A stretch of DNA of 64,000 bases from Patescibacteria group bacterium (lineage in GTDB: Bacteria; Patescibacteriota; Minisyncoccia; Phycocordibacterales; UBA9973): assembly GCA_028868715.1 (NCBI GenBank), contig JAGWUB010000002.1, forward strand, positions 8,430-72,429. The letters run 5' to 3'. The notes below the pieces were generated by a model. The model was not told where the DNA came from, did no database searches, and saw nothing but the letters and a program-made list of their open reading frames with translations. The first letter of the stretch is position 1; each line of letters begins with the position of its first letter. Of the stretch, positions 5,034-61,050 are shown piece after piece. Made by a program: the position numbers and the translations under genes.

Positions 5034-5855
5034 ATGTCTAAATTATCTGTGGGAATTGTTGGCTTGCCAAACGTTGGAAAATCTACGCTTTTTAATGCGC
5101 TTACTAAAAAGGGTGTGCCAGCAGAAAATTATCCTTTTTGTACCATTGATCCATCAGTAGGAATTGTTCCGGTTCCAGATGAAAGGCTAGATAAGCTTTC
5201 AGCTATGAGTAAGTCCAAGAAAACCATACCGGCGGTGGTAGAGTTTGTGGATATCGCAGGTCTGGTTAAAGGAGCTTCTACTGGAGCTGGACTCGGTAAT
5301 AAATTTTTGTCTCACATACGTGAGGTGGACGCTATTATTGAAGTGGTCCGAATTTTTGAGGATAAAGACATGATTCATGTGCACGATAAAGTGGACCCAC
5401 TTTTTGATATTGAAGTTATAAATTTTGAATTAGAACAAGCTGGAATTAAAAAGCCAACACTATATGTATTAAATACATCAGAAGCATCTGACAATGTAAA
5501 AAAAGATTTTATCTCAAGTCTTCCTGGGCCTTACTTAGAAGTAGACCCGATTTTTGGTACAGGATTAGATAATTTAATTAAATCTAGTTACGATTTATTG
5601 AACTTGATTACCTTCTTTACCACTGGAGAGGATGAGTCTAGAGCCTGGACAACCAAGCGGGACGCTAAAGCTCCAGAAGCAGGACGATCTATTCACAACG
5701 ATTTTAAGGAAAAATTTATTCGCGCGGAAGTAATAAACTGGAAAGATTTACTTGATTGTGGGTCTTATGCAGTTGCTCGATCAAAAGGACTAGTACGCAC
5801 CGAAGGCAAGGAGTACGTCGTACAAGACGGCGATGTTATCGAGTTTTTGGTGTAG
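5034..5855 (+). CDS. ychF: Ribosome-binding ATPase YchF/OLA1-like (Obg family), short form lacking the central helical insertion
   Basis: GIVGLPNVGKSTLFNALT P-loop, DIAGLVKGAS G3 region, and a C-terminal TGS-like segment (EGKEYVVQDGDVIEFLV). At 273 aa it is ~90 aa shorter than E. coli YchF. Confidence 0.7.
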   Translation: MSKLSVGIVGLPNVGKSTLFNALTKKGVPAENYPFCTIDPSVGIVPVPDERLDKLSAMSKSKKTIPAVVEFVDIAGLVKGASTGAGLGNKFLSHIREVDAIIEVVRIFEDKDMIHVHDKVDPLFDIEVINFELEQAGIKKPTLYVLNTSEASDNVKKDFISSLPGPYLEVDPIFGTGLDNLIKSSYDLLNLITFFTTGEDESRAWTTKRDAKAPEAGRSIHNDFKEKFIRAEVINWKDLLDCGSYAVARSKGLVRTEGKEYVVQDGDVIEFLV

Positions 5856-6378
5856 CTGGTTTCTTCTTCTTATATTTTTTTACTTTCACTGCCACCTTCT
5901 TTATTTTTGGTTGAGCCTTTACTTTTATTGGCTTCTTCAAGCCCTCAATCTCATGCATGAGTAATGTGAGTGTGTTTTCTATATTTTTAAATTTCTCATT
6001 TTCTATTTGTTCATGTCTTTCTTCTTCTTCATCCTCAGAAATTTCTTCCACGTCCTCCTGAATTTCATCCACATCTTTTTGAATTTCATCCACGTCCTCC
6101 TGAATTTCATCCACATCTTTTTGAATTTCTTCAATGTCCTCTGACACTTCCTCCAGTTCCTCACTTTGTCTATTCACAGTGATTTGAATAAAAATTGAAA
6201 GGTAAATCGCTTCCAAGGATACTGCTGTTGTCAAAATTAATAAAATGCTTGAGGTATCAAAACCCAAAAATCGCAATCCAAAAATACCTATAAAAAAGAT
6301 TGTGTGAATTATTAAAGACCCAGTTGACCCGATAGCTGCCGTTAAGTTTTTAGAAAAATCATTAAATTTATCATTCAT
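5836..6378 (-). CDS. Membrane-anchored protein with an acidic 7-aa tandem repeat (DVDEIQE/K x5) and a lysine-rich basic C-terminal tail
   Basis: N-terminal hydrophobic helices, the repeat (EEIQKDVDEIQEDVDEIQKDVDEIQEDVEE) encoded by 21-nt DNA tandem repeats at ~6034-6153, and the C-terminal KVKAQPKIKKVAVKVKKYKKKKPATPKTR. The 3' end overlaps ychF by 20 nt on the opposite strand. Confidence 0.5.
   Translation of the reverse strand: MNDKFNDFSKNLTAAIGSTGSLIIHTIFFIGIFGLRFLGFDTSSILLILTTAVSLEAIYLSIFIQITVNRQSEELEEVSEDIEEIQKDVDEIQEDVDEIQKDVDEIQEDVEEISEDEEEERHEQIENEKFKNIENTLTLLMHEIEGLKKPIKVKAQPKIKKVAVKVKKYKKKKPATPKTR
6034..6153 (-). repeat. Near-perfect 21-nt tandem repeats (~5.5 copies) inside the coding region
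   Basis: cacgtcctcctgaatttcatc alternates with cacatctttttgaatttcatc, directly visible in the sequence. Confidence 0.85.
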
Positions 6379-18931: not shown

Positions 18932-18933
18932 AG

Positions 18934-19004
18934 TGCGGGATACGAGAATCGAACTCGTGTCTAATCCTTGGGAAGGACTCGTTCTACCACTAGACCAATC
19001 CCGC
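18934..19004 (-). tRNA. tRNA-Gly (anticodon CCC)
   Basis: The reverse complement GCGGGAT…AGTCC-TTCCCAA-GGATT…CGAG-TTCGATT-CTCG-ATCCCGC-A folds as a cloverleaf with a 7-bp acceptor stem, TTCGATT T-loop and CCC anticodon. No encoded CCA. Confidence 0.8.
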
Positions 19005-19619: not shown

Positions 19620-20771
19620 TCACATAATAGTATTTGTTGGTATAGAGACGCTAAAAACGCTACCTTTTTTTTGTACGCTTTGAACTTTTACTGAACCTCC
19701 ATGAATTTCTGCAACCCATTTTACGATAGCCAGTCCGAGGCCTACGTTATTTTCGTGAGATCTTTGAAATTTATCTGCTCGATAAAATCTTTCAAATACA
19801 TGAGGTAAATCTTCTTCAGATATCCCGATTCCATCGTCAGCCACACTTATGGTGATAAGATTTTTTGATTTTTTAACACTGATTTTTGTATGACCATTTT
19901 TACGTCCATAAATTATAGAATTCTTAACAAGATTTATTATCATCTTGGCCAAGTATCCCTCATCTCCAAGCATTATTATGCGTGGCATTTCCGAGGAGGT
20001 AATTGAAATATTTTTTTTATAGGCGAGGGGCTTACATTGTCCTACAACTTTTTTGACCAAAACCCTTAAGTCTAATTTTTTATAAACAATTCTGTTTTTT
20101 AATTCCCAAGCTTTAGAAGTTATGAGCGACAGATCTGTAAGAATTTTGGCGAGGCGTCCAATCTCATAATTTATATCTTTAAGCGCAGTTCTCATTGGCT
20201 TTGGTTTCTTTGATATGTGTCTCATGGCTAGATCGACATTTCCTTTAATTATTGCGAGTGGAGTGCGAAGCTCATGAGTCGCATCGGCGATTGATTCTAC
20301 TTTCCACCTTTCTACTTCAAGGAGCCTTTTGGATTCCTTAATCTGATCTACCTCTTTACGTTCAGTTATGTCTCTTATATTGCATTGAATAACGAGTTCA
20401 CCACCAGCTAGATAAGAATTGCTCACAAACTCGACAGAAACTAGTTTACCGGCCTTAGTTTCTAGAGGCAAATCTTCGTAACGTACATAACCCTCATTTT
20501 GTAAAATTTTAAAAACATCCTTAGACGCCCTCACATTTCTGAAGGCTCCTACTTCCCACAACTTTTTATTTAAGAATTCTTCTTTAGAATACTCAAGTAA
20601 TTTAATCAAAAATGGATTTACATCGGTAATTTGACCAGTCTCTGAATCGAGCATTAGTATTCCATCGTGAGCTGACTCAAAAAGTCGGCGATATTTTACC
20701 TCCGACGCCAGCAACTTCTTGTTTATATTATTGGAAACTTTTTTTATCTTTTTACCTAACTTTTTTTTCAT
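19620..20771 (-). CDS. Sensor histidine kinase with N-terminal PAS domain, cytoplasmic (no TM)
   Basis: PAS-like N-terminus (SAHDGILMLDSETGQITDVNP…), H-box HELRTPLAII, and HATPase_c N/G boxes (NLVKNSIIYG, DDGIGI, GLGLAIV). Confidence 0.85.
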   Translation of the reverse strand: MKKKLGKKIKKVSNNINKKLLASEVKYRRLFESAHDGILMLDSETGQITDVNPFLIKLLEYSKEEFLNKKLWEVGAFRNVRASKDVFKILQNEGYVRYEDLPLETKAGKLVSVEFVSNSYLAGGELVIQCNIRDITERKEVDQIKESKRLLEVERWKVESIADATHELRTPLAIIKGNVDLAMRHISKKPKPMRTALKDINYEIGRLAKILTDLSLITSKAWELKNRIVYKKLDLRVLVKKVVGQCKPLAYKKNISITSSEMPRIIMLGDEGYLAKMIINLVKNSIIYGRKNGHTKISVKKSKNLITISVADDGIGISEEDLPHVFERFYRADKFQRSHENNVGLGLAIVKWVAEIHGGSVKVQSVQKKGSVFSVSIPTNTIM

Positions 20772-20780
20772 TGTTTTAGA

Positions 20781-21485
20781 TTATTCTTTTAAAACAAATC
20801 CAACCCCACGCACAGTGTGGATTAATGGCTTTTTGTTGCCTTTGTTTATCTTAGAACGAAGGTATTTTATGTGGACATTTAACTCATTTCCAACCTCTTT
20901 AAACGTTGGCCCCCAAGCATGGTCTATGAGGTCACGTCTTTTGACAGCTTCACCTTTGCGGGAGATAAGAGTATCTAACAGCTTATACTCTTTTGGGGTA
21001 AGGGGAATGACAACTCCTCCTCGAGTCACTTCATGTTTTTTCTTATCCATAACCAAATTAGCAACCTTAAGCATATCTTCATCAGTTGTTTTTCTGCGAC
21101 GCAAAATTGCACGAATTCTAGAAAACAATTCAATCAAACTGAAGGGTTTTATTAGATAATCATCTGCGCCGGCGTCGAGTCCAAAAACTTTATCTTCAAT
21201 GGCACCTCTGGCAGTGAGCATGATTACCGGTGTGTGAATGTGGCGAGCTCTGAGTTCTCTGCAAATGGCAAAACCATCTTTACTCGGAAGCATAACGTCT
21301 AAAAGAATCAAGGAGTAATTATTTCTCATTGCCTTACTCAAACCTTCCTCTCCGTCATAAGCTACATCAACAGAATAGCGCTCTTCCTTCAATGCTTTTT
21401 TAAGTATATTAACTAATTTTTTTTCATCTTCAATTATTAAAATTGCCATGACATTAATTCTATCATTTTCAATATATTTGCGCAA
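20781..21485 (-). CDS. OmpR-family response regulator (REC + winged-helix DNA-binding domain)
   Basis: AILIIEDE…LILLDVMLPSKDGF…IMLTA receiver domain, then the trans_reg_C motifs (LTPKEYKLLDTL…, VWG…YLRSKI). Confidence 0.85.
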   Translation of the reverse strand: MRKYIENDRINVMAILIIEDEKKLVNILKKALKEERYSVDVAYDGEEGLSKAMRNNYSLILLDVMLPSKDGFAICRELRARHIHTPVIMLTARGAIEDKVFGLDAGADDYLIKPFSLIELFSRIRAILRRRKTTDEDMLKVANLVMDKKKHEVTRGGVVIPLTPKEYKLLDTLISRKGEAVKRRDLIDHAWGPTFKEVGNELNVHIKYLRSKINKGNKKPLIHTVRGVGFVLKE

Positions 21486-21622
21486 TACATAATTAGCCTT
21501 ATTATTAAGTTTATATTAAAGTTATGCACAATGTATTAACAGGTTTTATCACTTTTTTAGTTGGTAATGCTTGACTACGCTTGAATATTAGAATACAATT
21601 ATTAAGATTAGATTAAATTACT

Positions 21623-22135
21623 ATGAACAAAAAGCAAGAGGTAAAATCACAGAAAATATTAACTCAAGCATATACTGACTACAAAGATATGCTTAGTAAG
21701 CGAGCTTTTTTTAAAGTGAACGATCGGGTGGTTAGTGAATACTTGGTACAAGATACTTTTATAAAAACTTGGAAATATCTTATGAAAGGAGGGAAGATAG
21801 AAATAATGGGAGCTTTTCTCTATCACGTTTTGAACAATCTTATCGTAGATGAATATAGAAAACATAAAACAACTTCTCTCGACTCGCTTTTAGAAAAAGG
21901 ATTTGAGCCACGCGCTGAAGATCACGAGCGGATCTTTGATGCCTTGGATGGAAAGACTTCATTTGGGCTAATAGAGCATCTGCCTAGAATATATAAGAAA
22001 GTAATACGTATGAAATATGCCCAAGATTTATCGCTTAAAGAAATGTCTCAAATCACCGGAAAATCAAAAAATGTCATTGCGGTGCAAACTCATAGGGGAT
22101 TAGAGAAACTTAAATTATTGTATAATCCTGCTTAG
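21623..22135 (+). CDS. ECF-type RNA polymerase sigma factor (sigma-70 regions 2 and 4)
   Basis: Region-2-like segment (…QDTFIKTWKYL…) and a region-4 HTH (LSLKEMSQITGKSKNVIAVQTHRGLEKLK). Divergent from the two-component-system operon. Confidence 0.7.
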   Translation: MNKKQEVKSQKILTQAYTDYKDMLSKRAFFKVNDRVVSEYLVQDTFIKTWKYLMKGGKIEIMGAFLYHVLNNLIVDEYRKHKTTSLDSLLEKGFEPRAEDHERIFDALDGKTSFGLIEHLPRIYKKVIRMKYAQDLSLKEMSQITGKSKNVIAVQTHRGLEKLKLLYNPA

Positions 22136-22140
22136 TCTTT

Positions 22141-22386
22141 TTGTGTCCTCGGCAGGATATCTCGGTTTACCACCGCGGGTGCTTTTCCGTTTAGTTTTAC
22201 TAAACATGGAAAAGCCTTTCGCTTCCTGCCCGAAATAAAGCAGTTTATTTCTCTCGGACACAGTTGTGTCCTCGGCAGGATATCTCGGTTTACCACCGCG
22301 GGTGCTTTTCCGTTTAGTTTTACTAAACAAGGAAAAGCCTTTCGCTTCCTGCACGAAATAAAGCAGTTTATTTCTCTCGGACACAC
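22141..22386. repeat. Two tandem 123-bp direct repeats (~97% identical). On the minus strand each ends with the last 17 nt of the adjacent tRNA-Arg (TCCTGCCGAGGACACAA).
   Basis: Unit 1 is 22141-22263 and unit 2 is 22264-22386, differing at 3 positions. The same 17-mer starts the tRNA region at 22387. Each unit contains a strong nested hairpin (gcttttcc-gtttagt-ttt-actaaac-at-ggaaaagc) and an AT hairpin (aaataaa-gcag-tttattt). Confidence 0.85.
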
Positions 22387-22389
22387 TTG

Positions 22390-22461
22390 TGTCCTCGGCA
22401 GGAATCGAACCTGCAACTACTCCTTAGGACGGAGTCGTTATATCCATTTAACTACGAAGAC
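22390..22461 (-). tRNA. tRNA-Arg (anticodon CCT)
   Basis: The reverse complement GTCTTCG-TA-GTTA…ACTCC-GTCCTAA-GGAGT-AGTT-GCAGG-TTCGATT-CCTGC-CGAGGAC-A is a clean cloverleaf of 72 nt. Confidence 0.8.
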
Positions 22462-22546: not shown

Positions 22547-22795
22547 ATGTCTCCAGAGGAAAGAGAGCTTTTAAATAGAAGCGTAAAGCTTGCCGAAGAG
22601 AATAATGAAATGTTACATTCAATGCATCGCTCTCTGCGCTTACAGCGCATTATGAGTATTGTATATTGGGTGTTTATAATTGGTTCGGCTATCGGTGCAT
22701 ATTATATAATTGCACCATATCTGAATCAGTTAAAGAGCTTATATGAAAGTGGTGCAGGAGATGTTTTGAGAAATATAAATAATATGCCTAGGTAG
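22547..22795 (+). CDS. Hypothetical small membrane protein (82 aa)
   Basis: A single hydrophobic helix (IVYWVFIIGSAIGAYYIIAPYL). The stop overlaps the 5' end of tRNA-Phe by 10 nt, so the real 3' end is uncertain. Confidence 0.3.
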   Translation: MSPEERELLNRSVKLAEENNEMLHSMHRSLRLQRIMSIVYWVFIIGSAIGAYYIIAPYLNQLKSLYESGAGDVLRNINNMPR

Positions 22796-22857
22796 CTCAG
22801 TGGTAGAGCGCAGCCCTGAAGAGGCTGGCGTCGGGTGTTCAATTCACCCCCTAGGCA
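22786..22857 (+). tRNA. tRNA-Phe (anticodon GAA)
   Basis: GCCTAGG-TA-GCTC-AGTGGTA-GAGC-G-CAGCC-CTGAAGA-GGCTG-GCGTC-GGGTG-TTCAATT-CACCC-CCTAGGC-A. Confidence 0.85.
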
Positions 22858-22911
22858 CATAAAGAAGATTTCTAACTATACATTATTAAAAGCACAGAGT
22901 ATAATTAAAAA

Positions 22912-29109: not shown

Positions 29110-29121
29110 CTAAATTAATTG

Positions 29122-29193
29122 TGCGCGGTGAGGGGATTGAACCCCCGGCCTACTCTACGTCAAAGAGTCGCTCTACCACTGAGCTAACCGCGC
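29122..29193 (-). tRNA. tRNA-Val (anticodon GAC)
   Basis: The reverse complement GCGCGGT-TA-GCTC-AGTGGTA-GAGC-G-ACTCT-TTGACGT-AGAGT-AGGCC-GGGGG-TTCAATC-CCCTC-ACCGCGC-A. Confidence 0.85.
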
Positions 29194-32901: not shown

Positions 32902-32929
32902 TTACATTTTTTATTGTAACACAAATCTG

Positions 32930-33001
32930 TGACCCCACAGAGAATCGAACTCTGATTACCGCCTTGAAAAGGCGATGTCCTAACCGTTAGACGATGGGGC
33001 C
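32930..33001 (-). tRNA. tRNA-Glu (anticodon TTC)
   Basis: The reverse complement GGCCCCA-TC-GTCT-AACGGTTA-GGAC-A-TCGCC-TTTTCAA-GGCGG-TAAT-CAGAG-TTCGATT-CTCTG-TGGGGTC-A closely resembles bacterial tRNA-Glu. Confidence 0.85.
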
Positions 33002-33163: not shown

Positions 33164-33250
33164 GGAGACGTGGCTGAGTGGTTGAAGGCACCAGTTTCGA
33201 AAACTGGCATCGGGGCAACTCGATCGTGAGTTCAAATCTCACCGTCTCCG
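33164..33250 (+). tRNA. tRNA-Ser (anticodon CGA), long variable arm
   Basis: GGAGACG-TG-GCTG-AGTGGTTGA-AGGC-A-CCAGT-TTCGAAA-ACTGG-[CATCGGGGCAACTCGATC]-GTGAG-TTCAAAT-CTCAC-CGTCTCC-G. Confidence 0.85.
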
Positions 33251-33316
33251 CATTGACTTGCAAAATTGCTACAGGGTATAATTGTATATTATAAAGTTTT
33301 TTAATTAAATAAATTT

Positions 33317-53679: not shown

Positions 53680-56175
53680 TTAGGTCTTTGGGGTGTCTGG
53701 ATGCTTACTGAAAGGAATTAGATTTGTAGGGATAGGTATATTAAGAGAAGGACACATAATGTTGTTTATCTCAGTTGTCGTAGTTAGATAAACTATACCT
53801 GTTGGTATCTTAAGATTCCAAGGAGTAAGAATTTTATCTTTATGCGCTAATTGAAATGCTTTTACATTTTTATCTGTCTGAGCTCCAAAAACTCCATCTT
53901 CTTTGATTCCAGCCTTCAAGAAATCATTCAAGAATTTTTGAACTTTTTTAACCGCAGCAACATTATTATTCTTTTTACCCATCTTTAGATACTTGTCTAA
54001 GTAAATTCCGCAAGAAGTTTCTGCGCCGAGAACTTTACCATCTGTAGAAGCTCCGAGAACTCTACCACCTCCGATGTATCCCCCGCCAAAAGAAGTTCCA
54101 CCAGTATTATCTACGCAGTTGCCACTATTATCTATATGTTTACCAGCTGGAACAGTTGTTTGAGTTCCATCAATATTTGGGCAGACGTCAGGTTGAGTAA
54201 CAGTAATAGATGCATTAGCGGAATTATTCTCTCCATTTGGATCGCGAGTAGAACTGGAAGTGTTTGCTGTGTTTAAAATAACTTGTTCATTTGTAGCACT
54301 GTTTGAAACAGTAGCGGTGATATGAAGTGTTGCACTGCTATCATTTGCTAAGGTGCCAACTGTCCAAACTCCTGTTCCAGAAACGTAAGCTCCAGCACCG
54401 TCATCAGAAACATATGTGACTCCAGCTGGAAGTACATCGTTTACTACCACACTGTTTGCGCTATCAGGACCAGCGTTGTGGACTGTTATCGTGTATACAA
54501 CATTGCTTCCAATGTTTGGAGTCTGATTATCTACTGACTTGGCAATAGAAAGATCTGAACTTGTTCTTACTTCATCAGCAGCAAAACTTGCACTTACTGA
54601 AAGGTTTGCTGTTATATTTGTGTCAGTTCGTGGATTGGTTGTTGAAGTGTCGCTCCAATCTACAAAGTGGTAGCCAAGATTTGGAACTGCTGTGACCGCT
54701 GTGCCGTTTGCACCATAGTTAACTGTTTGTGGTGTAGTGCCAGTGATACTTCCATTAGCATTTGCAGTGTAAGTAAGAGTGAAAGTATCAATAGTAAAGT
54801 TTGCGATACAGGTTGTATCAGCTGTCAAAGTAACTGAACCATCTGTACAATCAGCATCTCCTCCCCAGCCGGTAAAGGTTGATCCCGTACTTGGAGTAGC
54901 ACTAATTGGTACTACTGTTCCCGTGTCGTATGTTCCGCTACCTGAAGTTGTTCCATCTCCAGTTCCAGCCTTATTGATTGTAAGAGTAAATCTGTCAGGA
55001 GCATTAGCAGCAAAGGTCGCAGAAATAGTGTGATTTGCTGTTATGTTTGAAAAGGTATAAGTCGTGACAACTCCTACAGATGAACTATCTACCAAAACAT
55101 CAGCGACGTGAAAACCACTATCAGGAGTTATTGTGTAAACTTGAGATGAACCATAATCTTTCGTTGTTACGCCTGTAGGGGTAACTGTACCATTTGCACC
55201 AGATGATGCGGTGATGGTGAAAGTGTCAATTGCAAAGTTTGCAGTTACACTAATATTTCCTTGAACATTTGAGTCAGTCCGTGGATTAGTTGTTGAAGCA
55301 TCGCTCCAATCTACAAAGTGGTAGCCAAGATTTGGAACCGCTGTGACCGTTGTGCCGTTTGCACCTTGGTTGACAGTCTGTGGCGAGGTACCAGTAATTG
55401 TACCGTTTGCACCAGCTGTGTAAGTCAAAGTGAATTGAGTTATAGGAATAAATGTATTTGTAATTGTACATGTGTATACATGCCCAGCAACGATGGTAAT
55501 ACTTCCATTTGCACAATCAGTGCTGTAGCTTGGAGTATAGCCTGAAGAATTAGATTCAGTTATAGAGTAAGGTCCGGCTACAATATCAGTAGGAGTATCT
55601 AAAGTAACTACAGTATTACCAACTTTAAATGGAGCAAAAGCACTTCCTAGAGCATTACTTCCAGAAACTACTTTGTGAATTACAACTGTACCGTTATTGG
55701 AAGGAGGCACATGTACACAAGTGGCAATAGTTGCGCTTGTATCACCTTGGTTGTCTTTGCCTGGAGGAGTGCTGTGGTAAAGCTTGGCTATAATAGAGAA
55801 ATTACCTGTGGTTGTATAAGTATGCGTACCTGTGAAAGTAAACGTGAAAGGTACATGACCAGAGTTTGGAGTGAAGGTTCCTAACCCATCTGTTACAGTT
55901 GTATCTCCCCAGTCAATCTCTACAGCATATTGACTAGCATCCCCAGGAGGAGCAATACCTGCCCCATTTCCAGAAACAGTTACAGGATTGAAAAGAGGAT
56001 TAGTTGCACAGTTGTTAAAATTAAATGGAGGAGTATGATTTCCACTTATTGGGTCTGAAATACTTGTAATCGCAATCGTTGGACTAGTAGCCGCTAAAAC
56101 TCTAAATACTCCGACCATGCCAAGGATCATTGCGAGCATGATAACTGGAGACAAAAACTTTAATAATTTTTTCAT
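53680..56175 (-). CDS. Large secreted cell-surface protein (831 aa) with Listeria-Bacteroides repeats (InlB B-repeat type), a DUF11 repeat and a C-terminal PG_binding_1-like domain
   Basis: Signal peptide. Repeated [38 protein letters not shown] units (FVDWSD is the List_Bact_rpt hallmark). DUF11-like segment ([49 protein letters not shown]…). C-terminal …[31 protein letters not shown] (LxxxG-x-DG-x-FG-xxT-xxAV-xxFQ). Internal DNA repeats of ~165 bp (54620-54785 and 55283-55447, about 90% identical). Confidence 0.75.
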
Positions 56176-56426
56176 AATGTTTGGTAAAATTAATTTTTTA
56201 CCTAATTAAATATAATAATAATAACGACTTTTCTTAATAATTTATTAACCAAAATACTATAAATTTAAAACCCAGTCTAACACACCATAAAGAGAGCTGT
56301 CAAATAATTGGGGGATATCCTGTGGATATGAAAATCTATAAAAAAGCACATTAAAATAACCTCACAGACTATGACGCTAGGGTATGTGAATATTTACAAC
56401 TTATTAATAATGTTTAGAAATATGTA

Positions 56427-57650
56427 CTAGAAAGCATTAGTGCCGAGGGGGCTACCCAAGCCAGTCGGACCGTCATACCCTGCCACAGCGGTACAGAGTA
56501 AATTTCCGCAAGATCCATTGCTTCCAGAGATGATGTCATGCAAATTATTTAAAACATTTGCATAAGGGAAACCATTGTTGATTGTGCTAGTGTTGCCAGC
56601 CAAAGCATAAGTCGCAGCGATGATCGGTGAAGCTAGGCTCGTGCCACCCACTTTAAACCAACCAGACCTTCCCTGATAGCGGACACTATCATAAACTGCA
56701 GCTCCAGAATTTGGATCAGCGTCGGCCGAAACATCAGCGACTGCGCGATTGCTACAGATAGATGGATTTAGAAAATTCTGGAAACTTGGTTGAGTTTCAT
56801 ATGCCGAGCAACCACTTCCCGCTCCGCTCCAAGCAGTTTCACCTACATAATTGTTTCCATTCAAAGTCAAAGTCGTACCACCCACTGCAGTGACATATTT
56901 GGAAGCTGCCGGATACTCTACTCCATAACCACTGTCTCCAGAACTAAAAGTTATTGCGATTCCGGGCTTGTTGAAATGGCCGTCATAAGTAGTTGTCGTT
57001 TCACTAGAAAACTCTCCCCCACCCCAAGAATTTGATATGACATTTGCACCCATCGTTTGAGCCCTATCTTCTGCAGCGATTAAATTAGCAAAACTATTTG
57101 AGTCTGCTTCCACTAAAAGTATACTGCAGTTTTGGCAAAGAGCGTGAGCTGTCTCTACATCTAATGCAATTTCCAAAGACCAGCCGGCATTTGTAGATGG
57201 ATAACTTGTATCCCCTCTCTGGCTGACTTTTTGGAAGCATGGAGTCGCACTTGAAACTGCGCAATTGTTCATTGATGGTAAACCAAACTTTGAGCTGTAA
57301 GTATTTAAGTCAGATAAAATATTTGGATCGTTATAAGCATCTACGATTGCGATGATTTGTTTAGTGTTTGCGGTGCCACTCAAATTGTATGCACCACGGA
57401 GTTGCGCAGGGCCAAAACCCGCAGGTAGAGATGTAGCCTTTGGTTGACCATTTGCATCTACTACCACTCGTGAATGGCATCTAGCGCTTACGCCACTCTC
57501 ACCAGGGCTACATACTGGAATATGGTTGACTGCCACAGCAGACATATGATTTTGGGCTGCCTCTGGAAGCGAATTTAATCCACCGGCCATTGCTGGACTG
57601 GTTAATAATATTAAAGATAATACAAGAATAGAAATAAATTTTTTTATCAT
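56427..57650 (-). CDS. Secreted serine-carboxyl peptidase (S53 sedolisin-like; S8/S53 superfamily), apparently without a long pro-domain
   Basis: Signal peptide. IAIVDAYNDPN…DLNTYSSKFGLP, SLEIALDVE, SNSWGG, SSGDSG and the catalytic-serine motif GGTSLASPIIAATYALAG. Confidence 0.6.
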   Translation of the reverse strand: MIKKFISILVLSLILLTSPAMAGGLNSLPEAAQNHMSAVAVNHIPVCSPGESGVSARCHSRVVVDANGQPKATSLPAGFGPAQLRGAYNLSGTANTKQIIAIVDAYNDPNILSDLNTYSSKFGLPSMNNCAVSSATPCFQKVSQRGDTSYPSTNAGWSLEIALDVETAHALCQNCSILLVEADSNSFANLIAAEDRAQTMGANVISNSWGGGEFSSETTTTYDGHFNKPGIAITFSSGDSGYGVEYPAASKYVTAVGGTTLTLNGNNYVGETAWSGAGSGCSAYETQPSFQNFLNPSICSNRAVADVSADADPNSGAAVYDSVRYQGRSGWFKVGGTSLASPIIAATYALAGNTSTINNGFPYANVLNNLHDIISGSNGSCGNLLCTAVAGYDGPTGLGSPLGTNAF

Positions 57651-57726
57651 AAATTTTTATTAGACTGATAATTAGATATTTATTATAAAACAATCAACAG
57701 GGCGCGCAAACAAGTTATCCACATAC

Positions 57727-57756
57727 AAAAAACCACCCAAAATGGGTGGTTTTTTG
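57727..57756. terminator. Bidirectional rho-independent terminator (aaaaaccaccc-aaaat-gggtggttttt)
   Basis: Perfect 11-bp stem including A/T runs, 3' of the 57779..58921 gene. Confidence 0.55.
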
Positions 57757-57778
57757 AAATAAAGTTATAAAGCTTTAT

Positions 57779-58921
57779 TTAGTCATTTTCTCTTTCTCTT
57801 GTATTTATTCCAAGATTAACTCTGCCAGTTTGAAGATTTAAACTTTGGTTTCCCTTTAGAGAATTGCCATCATTTTCATTTTCATCAGCATCATTGTCAT
57901 CGTGTCCATGTTTTGCAACAGAGCTGACACATTGACCTTGGTTTCGGAAGGTTGGATTAGTAAAAGTCATCCAGCCACCTTTTTTACAATCATCTTTGCT
58001 TTGAGGACCAGTTATTAATACTGGATTTACAATAAAGGATGCAGAGATAGTGTGGTTGGCAGTAACATTACTAAAAGTATATGTTGAAACTGCACCTACT
58101 GAAACACTATCAACGAGAACATCCGCTACCCTAAAACCACTGTTTGCAGTTATGGTGAATATTTGGTTTGATCCACTGTTTATTACGACTGCACCTGTAG
58201 GTGATATTGTACCATCGGCACCAGCTGAAGCTGTGATAGTAAATGTATTAACCACTGGGTTTGCTGCGAAGGATGCTGCGATTGTGTGGTTGGCAATAAC
58301 ATTCGTAAATGTGTATGTGCTAACTGCTCCAACCGAAGTACCATCTACTAAAACATCAGCGACATGAAAGCCACTAACCGCGGCGATCGCAAATGTTTGG
58401 TTTTGCCCATCAGTAACTAATACTGAACCGCTTGGTGTGATAGAGCCATTAGCTCCAGCGGTAGCGGTGATTGTACGCAATGCAATAGCTGCACCACTTA
58501 CTGTGGTAAGGGCACCAGTTCGTGCACCACCTTTATAATTGTCAGACCATGTTCCAGTTATTTTTCCGTCAGTTCCAATTGTACCAGTTACATGAAGGAC
58601 TGTCTGTGGAGTGACCGCATCTGCCGTAGCTGTGTAGTTTGCAAGAAAATCAATTGAGTTTCCTGAAACAGTACCCGATGTGATGACCCATGTATAAACG
58701 TTTGTTCCTGCTGGACTTCCTCCATGACCAGTAAGGTTTCCGGAGCTATCCTGCACTAGAGACAAATCATGAGAATATTGAGTACCTAAGTATTCCATAT
58801 TCACTACATAGTTCCCCGTCGCGTTATATGCTGGAGCTGTAGCTTGAGCTCTTAGCGCGAAAGATGTGACCAATAATGCTAATACGACAAATATACCTCC
58901 AAATATTTTTATTTTTTTCAT
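57779..58921 (-). CDS. Secreted protein: novel N-terminal domain shared with the 61321..62232 protein, two Listeria-Bacteroides repeats, and an acidic Asp/Asn-rich C-terminal tail
   Basis: Signal peptide MKKIKIFGGIFVVLALLVTSFALRAQA. The N-domain has TGNYVV…LGTQYSHDL…G.LTG.GG.P.G…SG.VSGNSI.F…YT. There are two ~75-aa repeats ([32 protein letters not shown]). Confidence 0.7.
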   Translation of the reverse strand: MKKIKIFGGIFVVLALLVTSFALRAQATAPAYNATGNYVVNMEYLGTQYSHDLSLVQDSSGNLTGHGGSPAGTNVYTWVITSGTVSGNSIDFLANYTATADAVTPQTVLHVTGTIGTDGKITGTWSDNYKGGARTGALTTVSGAAIALRTITATAGANGSITPSGSVLVTDGQNQTFAIAAVSGFHVADVLVDGTSVGAVSTYTFTNVIANHTIAASFAANPVVNTFTITASAGADGTISPTGAVVINSGSNQIFTITANSGFRVADVLVDSVSVGAVSTYTFSNVTANHTISASFIVNPVLITGPQSKDDCKKGGWMTFTNPTFRNQGQCVSSVAKHGHDDNDADENENDGNSLKGNQSLNLQTGRVNLGINTREREND

Positions 58922-61014: not shown

Positions 61015-61050
61015 AAACAAAAAACCACCTATTTATAGGCGGTTTTTTGT
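61015..61050 (-). terminator. Rho-independent terminator for the 61063..61245 gene (aaaaccacc-tatttata-ggcggtttt)
   Basis: Hairpin followed by a T-run on the minus strand, immediately 3' of the small gene. Confidence 0.45.

Follow-up and report, generated by a model that had tools for sequence, protein, structure and literature searches.

In a 64-kb stretch of Patescibacteria DNA (the window, meaning the whole stretch that was analysed), an intact tRNA-Arg(CCT) gene is followed by two nearly identical 123-nt units, each of which ends in the same 17 nt as the tRNA gene itself. This arrangement raises the question of what the units are. A first interpretation of the locus, made from its letters without database searches (the sequence-only reading), had offered three answers, namely scars of serial integration and excision at the tRNA gene, a structured RNA or mini-element, amplified in tandem, that makes use of the tRNA end, or a stacked bidirectional terminator.

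Repeat units behind tRNA-Arg(CCT)

The tRNA gene (22389/22390-22461, minus strand) was called by ARAGORN and by Rfam (tRNA model, 62.6 bits); it is intact, has no encoded CCA and carries the trailer CAA. It is convergent with a sigma-factor gene (21623-22135), and the 253-nt gap from the sigma stop codon (22135) to the tRNA 3' end is filled wholly by the two units, both of which lie on the minus strand. Unit A (22264-22386) adjoins the tRNA and matched the short-form nhmmer profile of the family described below with E = 7e-34, and unit B (22141-22263), which was also matched by this profile, is distal and lies 5 nt from the sigma stop codon. Tandem Repeats Finder (TRF) placed the tandem at 22141-22403, with a period of 123, 2.1 copies, 97% matches and no indels, while a repeat search found 22141-22263 and 22264-22386 to be 98% identical. 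The units differ by three mismatches (unit A/unit B, tRNA strand): G/C at 22386/22263, T/G at 22353/22230 and T/A at 22330/22207. No other copies of the unit were found elsewhere in the 64-kb window.

The 17-mer TCCTGCCGAGGACACAA, which comprises the 3' strands of T-stem and acceptor together with the discriminator and the CAA trailer, was found by exact-match search in exactly three copies in the window, at 22141, 22264 and 22387, each on the minus strand; none were expected by chance (100 shuffles, even at two mismatches). The copy at 22387-22403, here called X0, is the tail of the tRNA, and the other two are the X copies that end unit B (22141-22157) and unit A (22264-22280). These searches confirmed the two near-identical units and their common tRNA-Arg(CCT) ending as first described.

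On the tRNA strand, unit A begins with the acceptor part of an arm that is antisense to the tRNA tail. This part, TGTGTCC (22379-22385), is the 5' strand of helix P1 according to the MFE fold and to the host-tRNA match in relatives, and it complements GGACACA of either the tRNA tail or an X copy. Hairpin hp1 (22355-22374; GAAATAAA-CTGC-TTTATTTC) splits the arm at the acceptor/T boundary. The T part, GCAGGA (22347-22352), is the 5' strand of P2 in the MFE fold, and the AGCGAA after it is a diverged complement of the T-loop, a reading drawn from the related loci L094, L009 and L063. There follow hp2 (22304-22338), a 15-bp nested hairpin with compensatory changes relative to L021 and L097, and hp3 (22286-22298; CGG-TGGTAAA-CCG), which has the junction ACCCG before it and AGATA after it. 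The X copy supplies the 3' strands of P2 and P1. In unit B, the fold placed the corresponding parts at 22256-22262 (acceptor part), 22232-22251 (hp1), 22224-22230 (T part), 22181-22215 (hp2) and 22163-22175 (hp3); its T part, GGCAGGA, pairs with TCCTGCC over 7 bp, whereas unit A has one pair fewer. All hairpins listed in the sequence-only reading were recovered, hp2 being its 15-bp nested hairpin, hp1 its AT hairpin, and the junction plus hp3 its GC-rich segment. On both strands, the fold of a single unit was much more stable than those of shuffles (z = -6.5 and -7.0).

A key feature overlooked in the earlier description is the antisense nature of the 5' part of each unit: it reverse-complements the tRNA tail, and the unit thereby closes on itself.

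Short-read assemblers can miscount tandem copies, and the copy number of two (versus one or three) is that of the deposited assembly. An artefact, which had been named as a danger at the outset, is nevertheless unlikely, as it is opposed by the three differences between the units and by the assembly graphs of two independent runs. Logan contigs from these runs (SRR32006839 and SRR32006837) carry an identical sigma gene, and both end at window position 22170, exactly 30 nt into the repeat (k-1, with k = 31). In a de Bruijn graph, a true repeat of 31 nt or more would cause a branch at just this point, and the stop thus indicates that the repeat is real.

A family of elements 3' of tRNA genes

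Sequence comparison establishes the two units as tandem copies of one member of an ORF-less family of elements with a predicted structure. Its members, about 75-190 nt long, lie directly 3' of tRNA genes, in the orientation of the tRNA, in many Patescibacteria. The survey covered about 105 loci, picked via one 17-mer and one neighbouring protein. The search of related genomes suggested in the sequence-only reading succeeded with the 17-mer, which led in a genome scan to L021, where the same tRNA is followed by a single homologous unit of 114 nt. It failed with the unique part of the unit, for which there was no exact match among GTDB species representatives (22-mer) or viral contigs (25-mer), so the unit is not a widespread exact repeat. 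A metagenome scan for AGAT, zero or one further nucleotide and the 17-mer returned one locus only (L094).

Copies of their own last 14 nt were found 60-232 nt downstream of 22 of the 155 tRNAs in related loci. These tRNAs represent at least 11 isoacceptor types and include Arg (CCT, TCG, GCG, CCG and TCT), Phe, Glu, Pro, Val, Lys and Ser. Upstream of the 155 tRNAs there were no such copies, save among tandem Arg paralogues. In a 15-mer search of whole loci (170 tRNAs, about 100 loci), all 19 copies had the same orientation as the tRNA and lay 60-232 nt downstream. When the short and long nhmmer profiles were run over 824 kb, every one of the 22 matches was located 2-142 nt past a same-strand tRNA; a repeat family scattered without tRNA association, which the first reading had held up as a counter-case, is not what was found. 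Within the sampled loci, about one tRNA in eight bears an element.

The members share a plan, read here on the tRNA strand. An intrinsic-terminator-like hairpin comes first, only in some members. It is followed by an arm, X', that reverse-complements the 3' end of the host tRNA itself, in the order trailer plus acceptor 3' strand, inserted hp1, and T-stem 3' strand plus T-loop. Next is a conserved three-way-junction core, which in the short type (that of the window) consists of hp2 and hp3 with the conserved junctions UCGAAAGG, CACCYG or GURUACWG, and MGAU, and which differs in the long type. The last part is usually X, a direct copy of the last 13-25 nt of the tRNA that begins within the T-loop. 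Pairing of X' with X closes the element in an acceptor-like and a T-like double helix, interrupted by hp1. In the relatives, the identity block starts in the T-loop and ends 0-6 nt beyond the tRNA 3' end called by ARAGORN. X' fits each host tRNA (e.g. Phe, Glu, Pro and Ser), and in L025 it tracks the variant tail of that tRNA (GGGCACAA/TTGTGCCC). The window units have the same-strand 3' position, the hp1-split antisense arm, the three-way junction and the tail copy; homologous units in relatives measure 113-151 nt.

The distribution of the family is patchy. Empty orthologous sites were found in L026, L081, L086, L096, L100, L102 and L103-106, one tRNA site can hold differing core types depending on the genome, and the arrays of L052 and L041 are chimeric or compound. 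A mobile or a dispensable element would account for these patterns too.

The comparison with Rfam proposed in the sequence-only reading was carried out, and the strongly folding unit matched no Rfam 15 family, a collection that takes in riboswitches, ribozymes, group I/II introns and sRNAs. At the gathering threshold there was no family match to the elements in the window or in 12 related loci, and at E <= 10 there was none for the window units or two long-form units. No description of such an element family was found in the literature, and it is apparently undescribed so far. The nearest paper deals with group I introns at anticodon position 35/36 of Patescibacteria tRNAs, not with their 3' flanks (PMC13011429).

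Covariation, strand preference and a possible cis-acting RNA

In the long form, which has 43 pairs, 89% of the cells were paired compared with 68% in shuffles, and 37 pairs showed double changes. None of 500 shuffles scored as high, and slid controls reached 34-41%. MAFFT misaligned hp1 and hp2 of the short form, and its helices were therefore parsed by hand and then counted by script. With the window units included, hp1 occurs as seven distinct helices (98% paired) and hp3 as eight (100% paired, versus 42% with swapped partners); the values for the other helices were 94% (hp2), 90% (P2) and 84% (P1). Conserved G-U pairs are present.

Of 22 units, 18 folded better on the tRNA-sense strand, and the difference averaged -8 kcal/mol over the set (Wilcoxon p = 2e-5). 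The two units of the window show no strand asymmetry (+0.7 to +0.9 kcal/mol), so the strand argument rests on the relatives. Taken as sequence and folding evidence, strand asymmetry and covariation point to an RNA that extends the tRNA at its 3' end. When the tRNA and both units were folded together, the global MFE structure was register-shifted and lay below the modular fold (-125.2 vs -120.7 kcal/mol), indicating that the pairing partners are interchangeable.

The explanation that we favour, with moderate confidence, is that the units are tandem copies of a family member that acts in cis as an RNA on the tRNA precursor and was duplicated in this lineage. From orientation and strand asymmetry we infer that tRNA and element may be made as one RNA, with the element transcribed as a 3' extension of the precursor. 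The antisense arm would have two possible partners, the 3' strand of the tRNA itself and the decoy copy X; pairing with the decoy would let the tRNA fold freely. The element could in this way serve as a structured 3' clamp or switch on tRNA 3'-end processing, stability or read-through. The simplest route to the tandem would be unequal recombination or slippage between the 17-nt X repeats, since recombination between them gives exactly X-unit-X-unit-X; the three substitutions would be later than the duplication. The closest relative of unit A is unit B, and vice versa, and L021 and L097, whose hp1 is identical to that of the window, have a single unit each. The second of the original three answers, an amplified structured RNA or mini-element using the tRNA end, comes close to what the comparative data give.

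About half of the relatives (L025, L009, L015, L016, L032, L094 and L095) carry a strong terminator-like hairpin between tRNA and element, which would limit co-transcription with the tRNA. The X copy usually equals the tRNA tail without mismatch, and several X-hairpin-X' palindromes are perfect, which suggests DNA-level copying rather than RNA-level selection for these parts. The acceptor-like helix is 3 nt off the tRNA register, with discriminator and trailer buried, and the element is therefore no faithful mimic of an RNase P or RNase Z substrate.

Few known genomes are as reduced as those of Patescibacteria. Provided that the family is real and undescribed, a considerable share of their tRNA genes would bear a recurrent appendage with a strong structure, each appendage being tailored to its own tRNA. 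The family would form a novel class, either of RNAs linked to tRNAs or of ultra-small mobile elements, whose strand-exchange logic can be tested, and would give an entry point to tRNA 3'-end maturation and control in organisms that are not culturable alone.

Alternative explanations and known systems

The main rival, possible although rather doubtful, is that the family consists of tiny non-autonomous mobile elements that target tRNA genes, a reading that leaves room for the element to be a structured RNA as well. The free form might, with the same doubt, be a small single-stranded circle of DNA or RNA whose X/X' stem rebuilds the duplex from T-loop to tRNA end. Equally tentative is the proposed route, by which recombination at the T-loop with a chromosomal tRNA gene would produce X-loop-X'-core-X, as for CTXphi or integron attC, and so is the view of the window's tandem as two insertions or a dimer. 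Single-strand exchange with a folded hairpin would be expected to give precisely the order X-(hairpin)-X'-core-X, and the repeat boundary falls in the T-loop, like that of classical tRNA att sites. Where orthologous sites are filled or empty, the flank homology resumes straight after X (L021 versus L086). Differing cores at one site and the mosaic arrays mentioned above also favour mobility, as do the several copies per genome at different tRNAs (L009, L037, L041 and L063) and a near-identical hp2 common to two units of L009. In a co-directional gene the sense strand serves as template for the lagging strand, and the sense fold could thus be read as one of single-stranded DNA.

However, a Pfam scan of 30 ORFs from across the window revealed no recombinase, transposase or RT. 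The within-genome copies are old and divergent, without recent bursts, and moving between tRNA species would mean rebuilding both X and X' every time, for which we know of no mechanism. The conserved G-U pairs and the large strand asymmetry under RNA parameters also favour RNA over DNA hairpins. Phage, plasmid and viral collections yielded no copies: blastn with both units gave no match in phages and, in plasmids, a single chance match of 31 nt in an Enterobacter glycosyltransferase gene. In viral contigs, the six matches to the 17-mer each lay within a coding region and had no tRNA context, and the four matches to the long-core pattern were chance ones, lacking both a tRNA and a match to the profiles.

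Integron attC and CTXphi attP(+) sites resemble the family in forming imperfect hairpins of inverse core and core with a bulge on one strand, in keeping structure above sequence, in the order expected of single-strand exchange and in occurring as tandem arrays. The attC core and inverse core are GTTRRRY and RYYYAAC. The unit junction ACAGTTGTGTCC does not fit GTTRRRY, there is no link to IntI or Xer, and the Pfam scan found no integrase cognate to an attC-type site among 30 ORFs of the window; furthermore, the arms of the family vary by locus and equal the host tRNA tail, and its G-U pairs point to RNA. MITE, REPIN and Correia-type elements are likewise 100-190 nt long and intergenic, with terminal inverted repeats and a long-hairpin fold. 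Unlike them, the family is not dispersed in the surveyed loci, every copy found being directly 3' of a same-strand tRNA, and its 'terminal inverted repeats' differ at every tRNA species, so that there is no single transposase site. The 17-mer was not found on more than one contig of any Patescibacteria genome. A dispersed MITE was rejected on the position of the profile matches, the lack of another copy in the window and the tRNA-specific arms.

Two bolder readings, either of which would be unprecedented, are unlikely: that these are the smallest integrative elements yet, in the form of ORF-less minicircles, or that a riboswitch-like core lies 3' of the tRNA. The minicircle would be a single-stranded dumbbell of 100-190 nt, DNA or RNA, with a stem formed by the duplex of the T-loop-to-end segment. 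It would enter at the T-loop by folded-strand recombination, its arms being rebuilt to suit each new tRNA, and the tandem in the window would represent two successive insertions. The riboswitch-like core would gate tRNA maturation through strand exchange among interchangeable copies of the tRNA 3' strand. Non-coding RNAs are known from the flanks of tRNAs, such as E. coli 3'ETS-leuZ, plant tRNA-snoRNA dicistrons, MHV68 tRNA-miRNA, mascRNA and plant mitochondrial t-elements. As in the present family, a structured RNA is joined to a tRNA or has tRNA-like helices, and is presumably released or active in precursor processing (here processing is presumed). To our knowledge none of these repeats the 3' strand of its own tRNA in both sense and antisense, as the window family does, and the acceptor-like helix of the family is out of tRNA register.

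That the units are a stacked bidirectional terminator or insulator, with hairpins that stop the transcripts of both the sigma gene and tRNA-Arg, is very unlikely. The units occupy the entire gap and no other terminator is present there, the window unit folds equally well on either strand, and some relatives have terminator-like hairpins inside the X/X' palindrome; stable hairpins between convergent genes are also typical of rho-independent terminators. In contrast to these, however, the units have no U tract on the tRNA strand behind any of P1, hp1, hp2 and hp3. A terminator consensus scan gave two weak 5-bp matches, both inside hp2, against 1.0 expected from shuffles, and the third of the original answers therefore finds no support in the form of a canonical terminator, although the units may still have some insulating effect. 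The family is also found in non-convergent settings, for example upstream of an 82-aa ORF in L021, L025 and L052. Moreover, termination does not require a conserved three-way junction or multi-helix core, conserved loop and junction sequences or a cognate tail copy.

Direct repeats of a tRNA tail that start in the T-loop are the textbook att signature, and the window has three such cores in a row. It is highly improbable, all the same, that they are scars of repeated integration and excision by a larger element with its own integrase (phage, ICE or island), for which the 3' end of tRNA-Arg was attB, and just as improbable that the 106-nt 'cargo' is the leftover of a deletion. As the sequence-only reading had stated, no integrase is nearby (Pfam scan of 30 ORFs across 64 kb), and the insert holds no credible ORF. 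All tail repeats lie at the short distances given above and none at kb scale (170 tRNAs in about 100 loci, flanks of about 8-10 kb). The 'cargo' is conserved and covarying and follows a fixed plan behind many tRNA species, which independent deletions would not yield. With no match in phages, plasmids or viral contigs in addition, the integration-scar reading, and with it the first of the original answers, is largely refuted.

The T-loop sublocation class of tRNA-targeted integrative elements, reportedly defined by Williams in 2002, shares with the family a direct repeat of the tail from the T-loop to just past the gene, an insert downstream, an intact tRNA and possible tandem arrays. It differs in that the insert of the family measures 60-190 nt, has no ORF and no integrase nearby, is conserved, covarying and strand-asymmetric, and includes an antisense tail copy; none of the 170 tRNAs had a full-size element. 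Island-finding programs take direct repeats of tRNA tails as att signatures, and the possibility that such repeats arise without an integrase is an annotation pitfall.

It is barely credible that the tandem was expanded in assembly or encodes a 41-residue protein repeat: 123 nt equals 41 codons and three of the six frames are open across both units, but homologous units in relatives are not multiples of 3 in length, their stems change by paired compensatory substitutions, and the candidate ORFs would overlap the tRNA.

Several other ideas were considered and dropped. A tRNA, tRNA pseudogene or tRNA-like cloverleaf was rejected because ARAGORN and the Rfam tRNA and tmRNA models matched only the real tRNA, even at E <= 10. 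A degenerate tandem duplicate of the tRNA does not agree with the arm, which is an inverted and not a direct copy; it complements the trailer and T-loop (e.g. GGAATCGAA and CCAGGGTCGAA) and does not derive from the 5' strands of the tRNA. A retroviral-type primer-binding site was rejected since the arm fits the genomic trailer CAA, not CCA. A hammerhead or HDV-like ribozyme was dropped on the grounds that the CUGAUGA of L021 is not conserved, the topology is nested and there is no Rfam match. The RNA repeats of type III toxin-antitoxin systems are tandem, about 34-45 nt long and located beside an endoribonuclease toxin gene; here there are two copies with a period of 123 nt, flanked by a sigma factor and a tRNA, and the relatives have one unit. 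Synteny could not be followed through the sigma factor, the closest homologue of which (72% identity) has no adjacent tRNA. In the window, tRNA-Arg is inverted relative to the 82-aa ORF, and a site-specific inversion tied to the units was rejected, as the same inversion occurs in L099 and L103-106, which carry no units.

Tandem units behind tRNA-Arg(CCT)

On the minus strand, the tRNA-Arg(CCT) gene (22461-22389) is followed, directly after its trailer, by unit A (22386-22264) and then by unit B (22263-22141), which lies 5 nt from the stop codon of a convergent sigma-factor gene (21623-22135). The sequence-only reading had described two 123-nt units with three differences, each ending in the tRNA tail, and this was confirmed. 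TRF detected 2.1 copies at a period of 123 nt, with 97% matches and 0 indels, in this region; the mismatches lie at 22386/22263, 22353/22230 and 22330/22207, and the 17-mer TCCTGCCGAGGACACAA occurs in triplicate, once in the tRNA tail and once at each unit's end (chance expectation 0). Folding of a single unit gave z scores of -6.5 (tRNA strand) and -7.0 (opposite strand). An identical sigma gene was found on two Logan contigs from different runs, both stopping exactly 30 nt inside the repeat. Such ends are typical of an assembly graph that branches at a true repeat, which makes the assembly artefact considered earlier unlikely.

Read on the tRNA strand, a unit begins with N-TGTGTCC, complementary to GGACACA, which spans the last part of the acceptor 3' strand, the discriminator and the trailer start. 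Next come hairpin hp1 (GAAATAAA/TTTATTTC) and GCAGGA-AGCGAA, complementary to the 3' strand of the T-stem and then, in diverged form, to the T-loop. After AGG come hp2 (a 15-bp nested hairpin), ACCCG, hp3 (CGG-UGGUAAA-CCG), AGAUA and the 17-nt copy of the tRNA tail. The 5' part of what had been termed cargo repeats the tRNA tail (X) in inverted orientation, a feature that had been missed; this arm (X') is interrupted by hp1. In the predicted fold, helices P1 (7 bp) and P2 (6-7 bp) join X' to the 3'-terminal tail copy and close the unit.

The closest relative of unit A is unit B and vice versa, and the nearest homologues are single-unit, indicating that the duplication is specific to this lineage. 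With two 17-nt repeats spaced by 123 nt, slippage or unequal exchange would give X-unit-X-unit-X exactly as observed, the three substitutions having come after duplication. Alternatively, the pair could have arisen by a second insertion.

On the plus strand (22136-22461), the sigma frame meets no further stop beyond its TAG across both units and on into the tRNA; of the six frames, three are open. This was judged coincidental, since homologous units are not multiples of 3.

Related units and their linkage to tRNA genes

A unique 22-mer of the unit had no match in 185,579 species representatives, and the 17-mer matched ~50 Patescibacteria tRNA-Arg genes. The loci compared with the window (~105, here numbered with L) were gathered via this one 17-mer and one neighbouring protein. 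In L021 (Nomurabacteria) the same tRNA precedes a single 114-nt homologous unit ending in the 17-mer; hp1 is identical to that of the window, and the changes in hp2 and hp3 are fully compensatory. L097 and L098 (Paceibacterota) carry a single unit with hp1 as in the window. The order in L025 is terminator, X', homologous core and X, its X' (TTGTGCCC) fitting the variant tail GGGCACAA of its own tRNA. In L094, the single metagenome match, a tRNA-Arg(TCT) is followed by a terminator, an inverted tail copy that extends across the T-loop (TTTTGTG--GCAGGAATCGAAC), a core rich in GC and GAGATATCCTGCCGAGGACACAA.

In the related loci, a direct copy of the final 14 nt of the tRNA lies 60-232 nt downstream of 22 of 155 tRNAs, and these 22 cover many specificities; upstream copies were absent at these 155 tRNAs except for tandem Arg paralogues. 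A whole-locus 15-mer search returned 19 tail copies, all in the same orientation and downstream within the same distance range. The block of identity starts within the T-loop (TT|CGAWTCC) and extends 0-6 nt beyond the tRNA 3' end called by ARAGORN. The antisense arm is specific to each host tRNA, for example Phe TGGTGCCTGGAA..CCAGGGTCGAA, Glu GTGACTCTA..CAGGGAAT, Ser GGAGAGG and Pro GGGGTTGC, the last with one G-U pair.

Two core types were distinguished. The short core occurs at Arg (window units, L021, L025, L097), Val (L052, L086, L043), and Phe and Glu (L009). The long core, with the plan UCGAAAGG-CGGAGCG-hairpin-CGAG-GGGGUCG-hairpin-UGUGACC-GAWUCC, was found in L037 (twice), L041, L058, L063 (twice), L015, L022, L009, L052 and L095, and a compact version was seen by sequence inspection at tRNA-Val of L097. 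All 22 profile matches in 824 kb lie on the tRNA strand, 2-142 nt past a tRNA. The finding is regarded as real, and the units as members of an apparently undescribed family whose architecture matches no system compared. The literature yielded no description of the family; PMC13011429 deals with group I introns of the anticodon loop.

The two short-form elements of L009 (4339-4560 and 5263-5490), behind tRNA-Phe and tRNA-Glu of one genome, have near-identical hp2 stems and differ in hp1, junction and hp3, a pattern pointing to mosaic descent or to gene conversion from one element to another. In other Patescibacteria, degenerate tRNA-tail copies downstream of tRNA-Arg (L041 at ~2470-2500, L044, L049, L068 and L079) contain a recurring GC-rich palindrome, CTGCCTRCCGGCAGGCAG. 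This looks like a small palindromic insertion of its own, or like a third kind of element flanking tRNAs.

Selected fold, possible role and competing explanations

In the long form (43 pairs), 89% of cells are paired, against 68% in shuffles and 34-41% in slid controls; both sides have changed in 37 of the 43 pairs, and the observed values were reached by 0 of 500 shuffles. In the short form, hp1 is 98% paired over 7 distinct helices and hp3 100% over 8 (42% with swapped partners), with hp2 at 94%, P2 at 90% and P1 at 84%. The tRNA-sense strand folds more strongly in 18 of 22 units (mean difference -8 kcal/mol, Wilcoxon p = 2e-5; up to -19 kcal/mol in long forms), window units A and B being neutral, and conserved G-U pairs are present. 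We infer that selection acts on the fold of an RNA read in the tRNA direction.

The plan, tRNA linkage, covariation and strand bias together suggest that the element would be transcribed as a 3' extension of the tRNA. The antisense arm may then pair with the decoy tail copy, leaving the tRNA free to fold, or may instead capture the tRNA's own 3' strand, a switch that would be available because the tail copies are all identical. When the tRNA is folded together with two units, the predicted structure of lowest energy does use such shifted partners (-125.2 vs -120.7 kcal/mol), and the conserved three-way junction is positioned where it could bias partner choice. The favoured reading is a clamp or switch that would act in cis on the processing, stability or read-through of the precursor; taken as a whole, transcription as a tRNA extension included, it has in our estimate about an even chance of being correct. 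Against it stand the terminator-like hairpins between tRNA and element in about half of the relatives, the patchy occupancy of orthologous sites and the perfect identity of the tail copies.

The main rival is a tiny non-autonomous mobile element. Single-strand exchange between the tRNA gene and a folded hairpin circle, as for CTXphi or attC, is expected to produce X-hairpin-X'-core-X, but no recombinase was found among the 30 window ORFs, and each new tRNA would require both arms to be rebuilt. Mobility would also fit filled and empty sites at which flank homology picks up after X (L021 vs L086), differing cores at one site, a chimera at L052 Arg, whose 5' part is long-type and whose short-type 3' part almost equals that of the window units, compound arrays (L041) and multiple copies within one genome; however, no recent identical copies were seen, and G-U pairs occur in the elements.

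Scars of serial integration and excision at an att hotspot, one possibility raised in the sequence-only reading, were judged very unlikely: tail repeats lie 60-232 nt from their tRNAs and none is of kb scale, the element matches no phage, plasmid or viral sequence, and the 30 ORFs of the window include no integrase, transposase or RT. The neighbours are LepA, DivIC, glutaredoxin, histidine kinase, response regulator, sigma factor, HSP20, PrsW and TsaD. The stacked terminator module of that reading was not supported in the form of canonical terminators. A known RNA family was rejected as well, Rfam 15 giving no match for units in the window, in 12 related loci, or for short or long units at E <= 10. 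A dispersed MITE was rejected by the position of all 22 profile matches in the 824 kb 3' of tRNAs, a decayed tandem tRNA copy by the arm being the complement of trailer and T-loop, and a protein-coding repeat was also rejected.

Neighbouring genes and other window features

Like the sigma factor, an 82-aa ORF (22547-22795, KGL67_01895) has a 100% match in a Patescibacteria MAG. This ORF is without a Pfam match and has its stop codon inside tRNA-Phe; it has 145 homologues and adjoins tRNA-Arg(CCT) and tRNA-Phe across Paceibacteria. In comparison with L095-L106, the histidine kinase/response regulator/sigma block (19620-22135) between glutaredoxin and tRNA-Arg is present only in this genome, the same position being occupied elsewhere by a GGDEF gene, a small Cys-rich ORF or nothing. 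The orientation of tRNA-Arg varies by lineage; L099 and L103-106 are inverted like the window, yet without units.

None of the six window tRNAs (18933-19004, 22389-22461, 22786-22858, 29121-29193, 32929-33001 and 33164-33251) has an encoded CCA; five of them show C-A right behind the discriminator (CAA, CAT or CAG), which makes the trailer partly CCA-like.

A 21/42-nt tandem repeat (6040-6142; 4.9 and 2.4 copies) within the minus-strand ORF 5836-6378 is probably an acidic peptide repeat. Diverged direct repeats of 117-203 nt (54581-55434 and 55004-58376) share 68-80% identity, both within and between two large ORFs on the minus strand (53680-56175 and 57779-58921), suggesting that these may encode repeat-domain surface proteins. 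Two similar terminator-like palindromes (AAAAAACCACCC..GGGTGGTTTTTT; 57727-57756 and 61018-61047) follow neighbouring uncharacterised genes.
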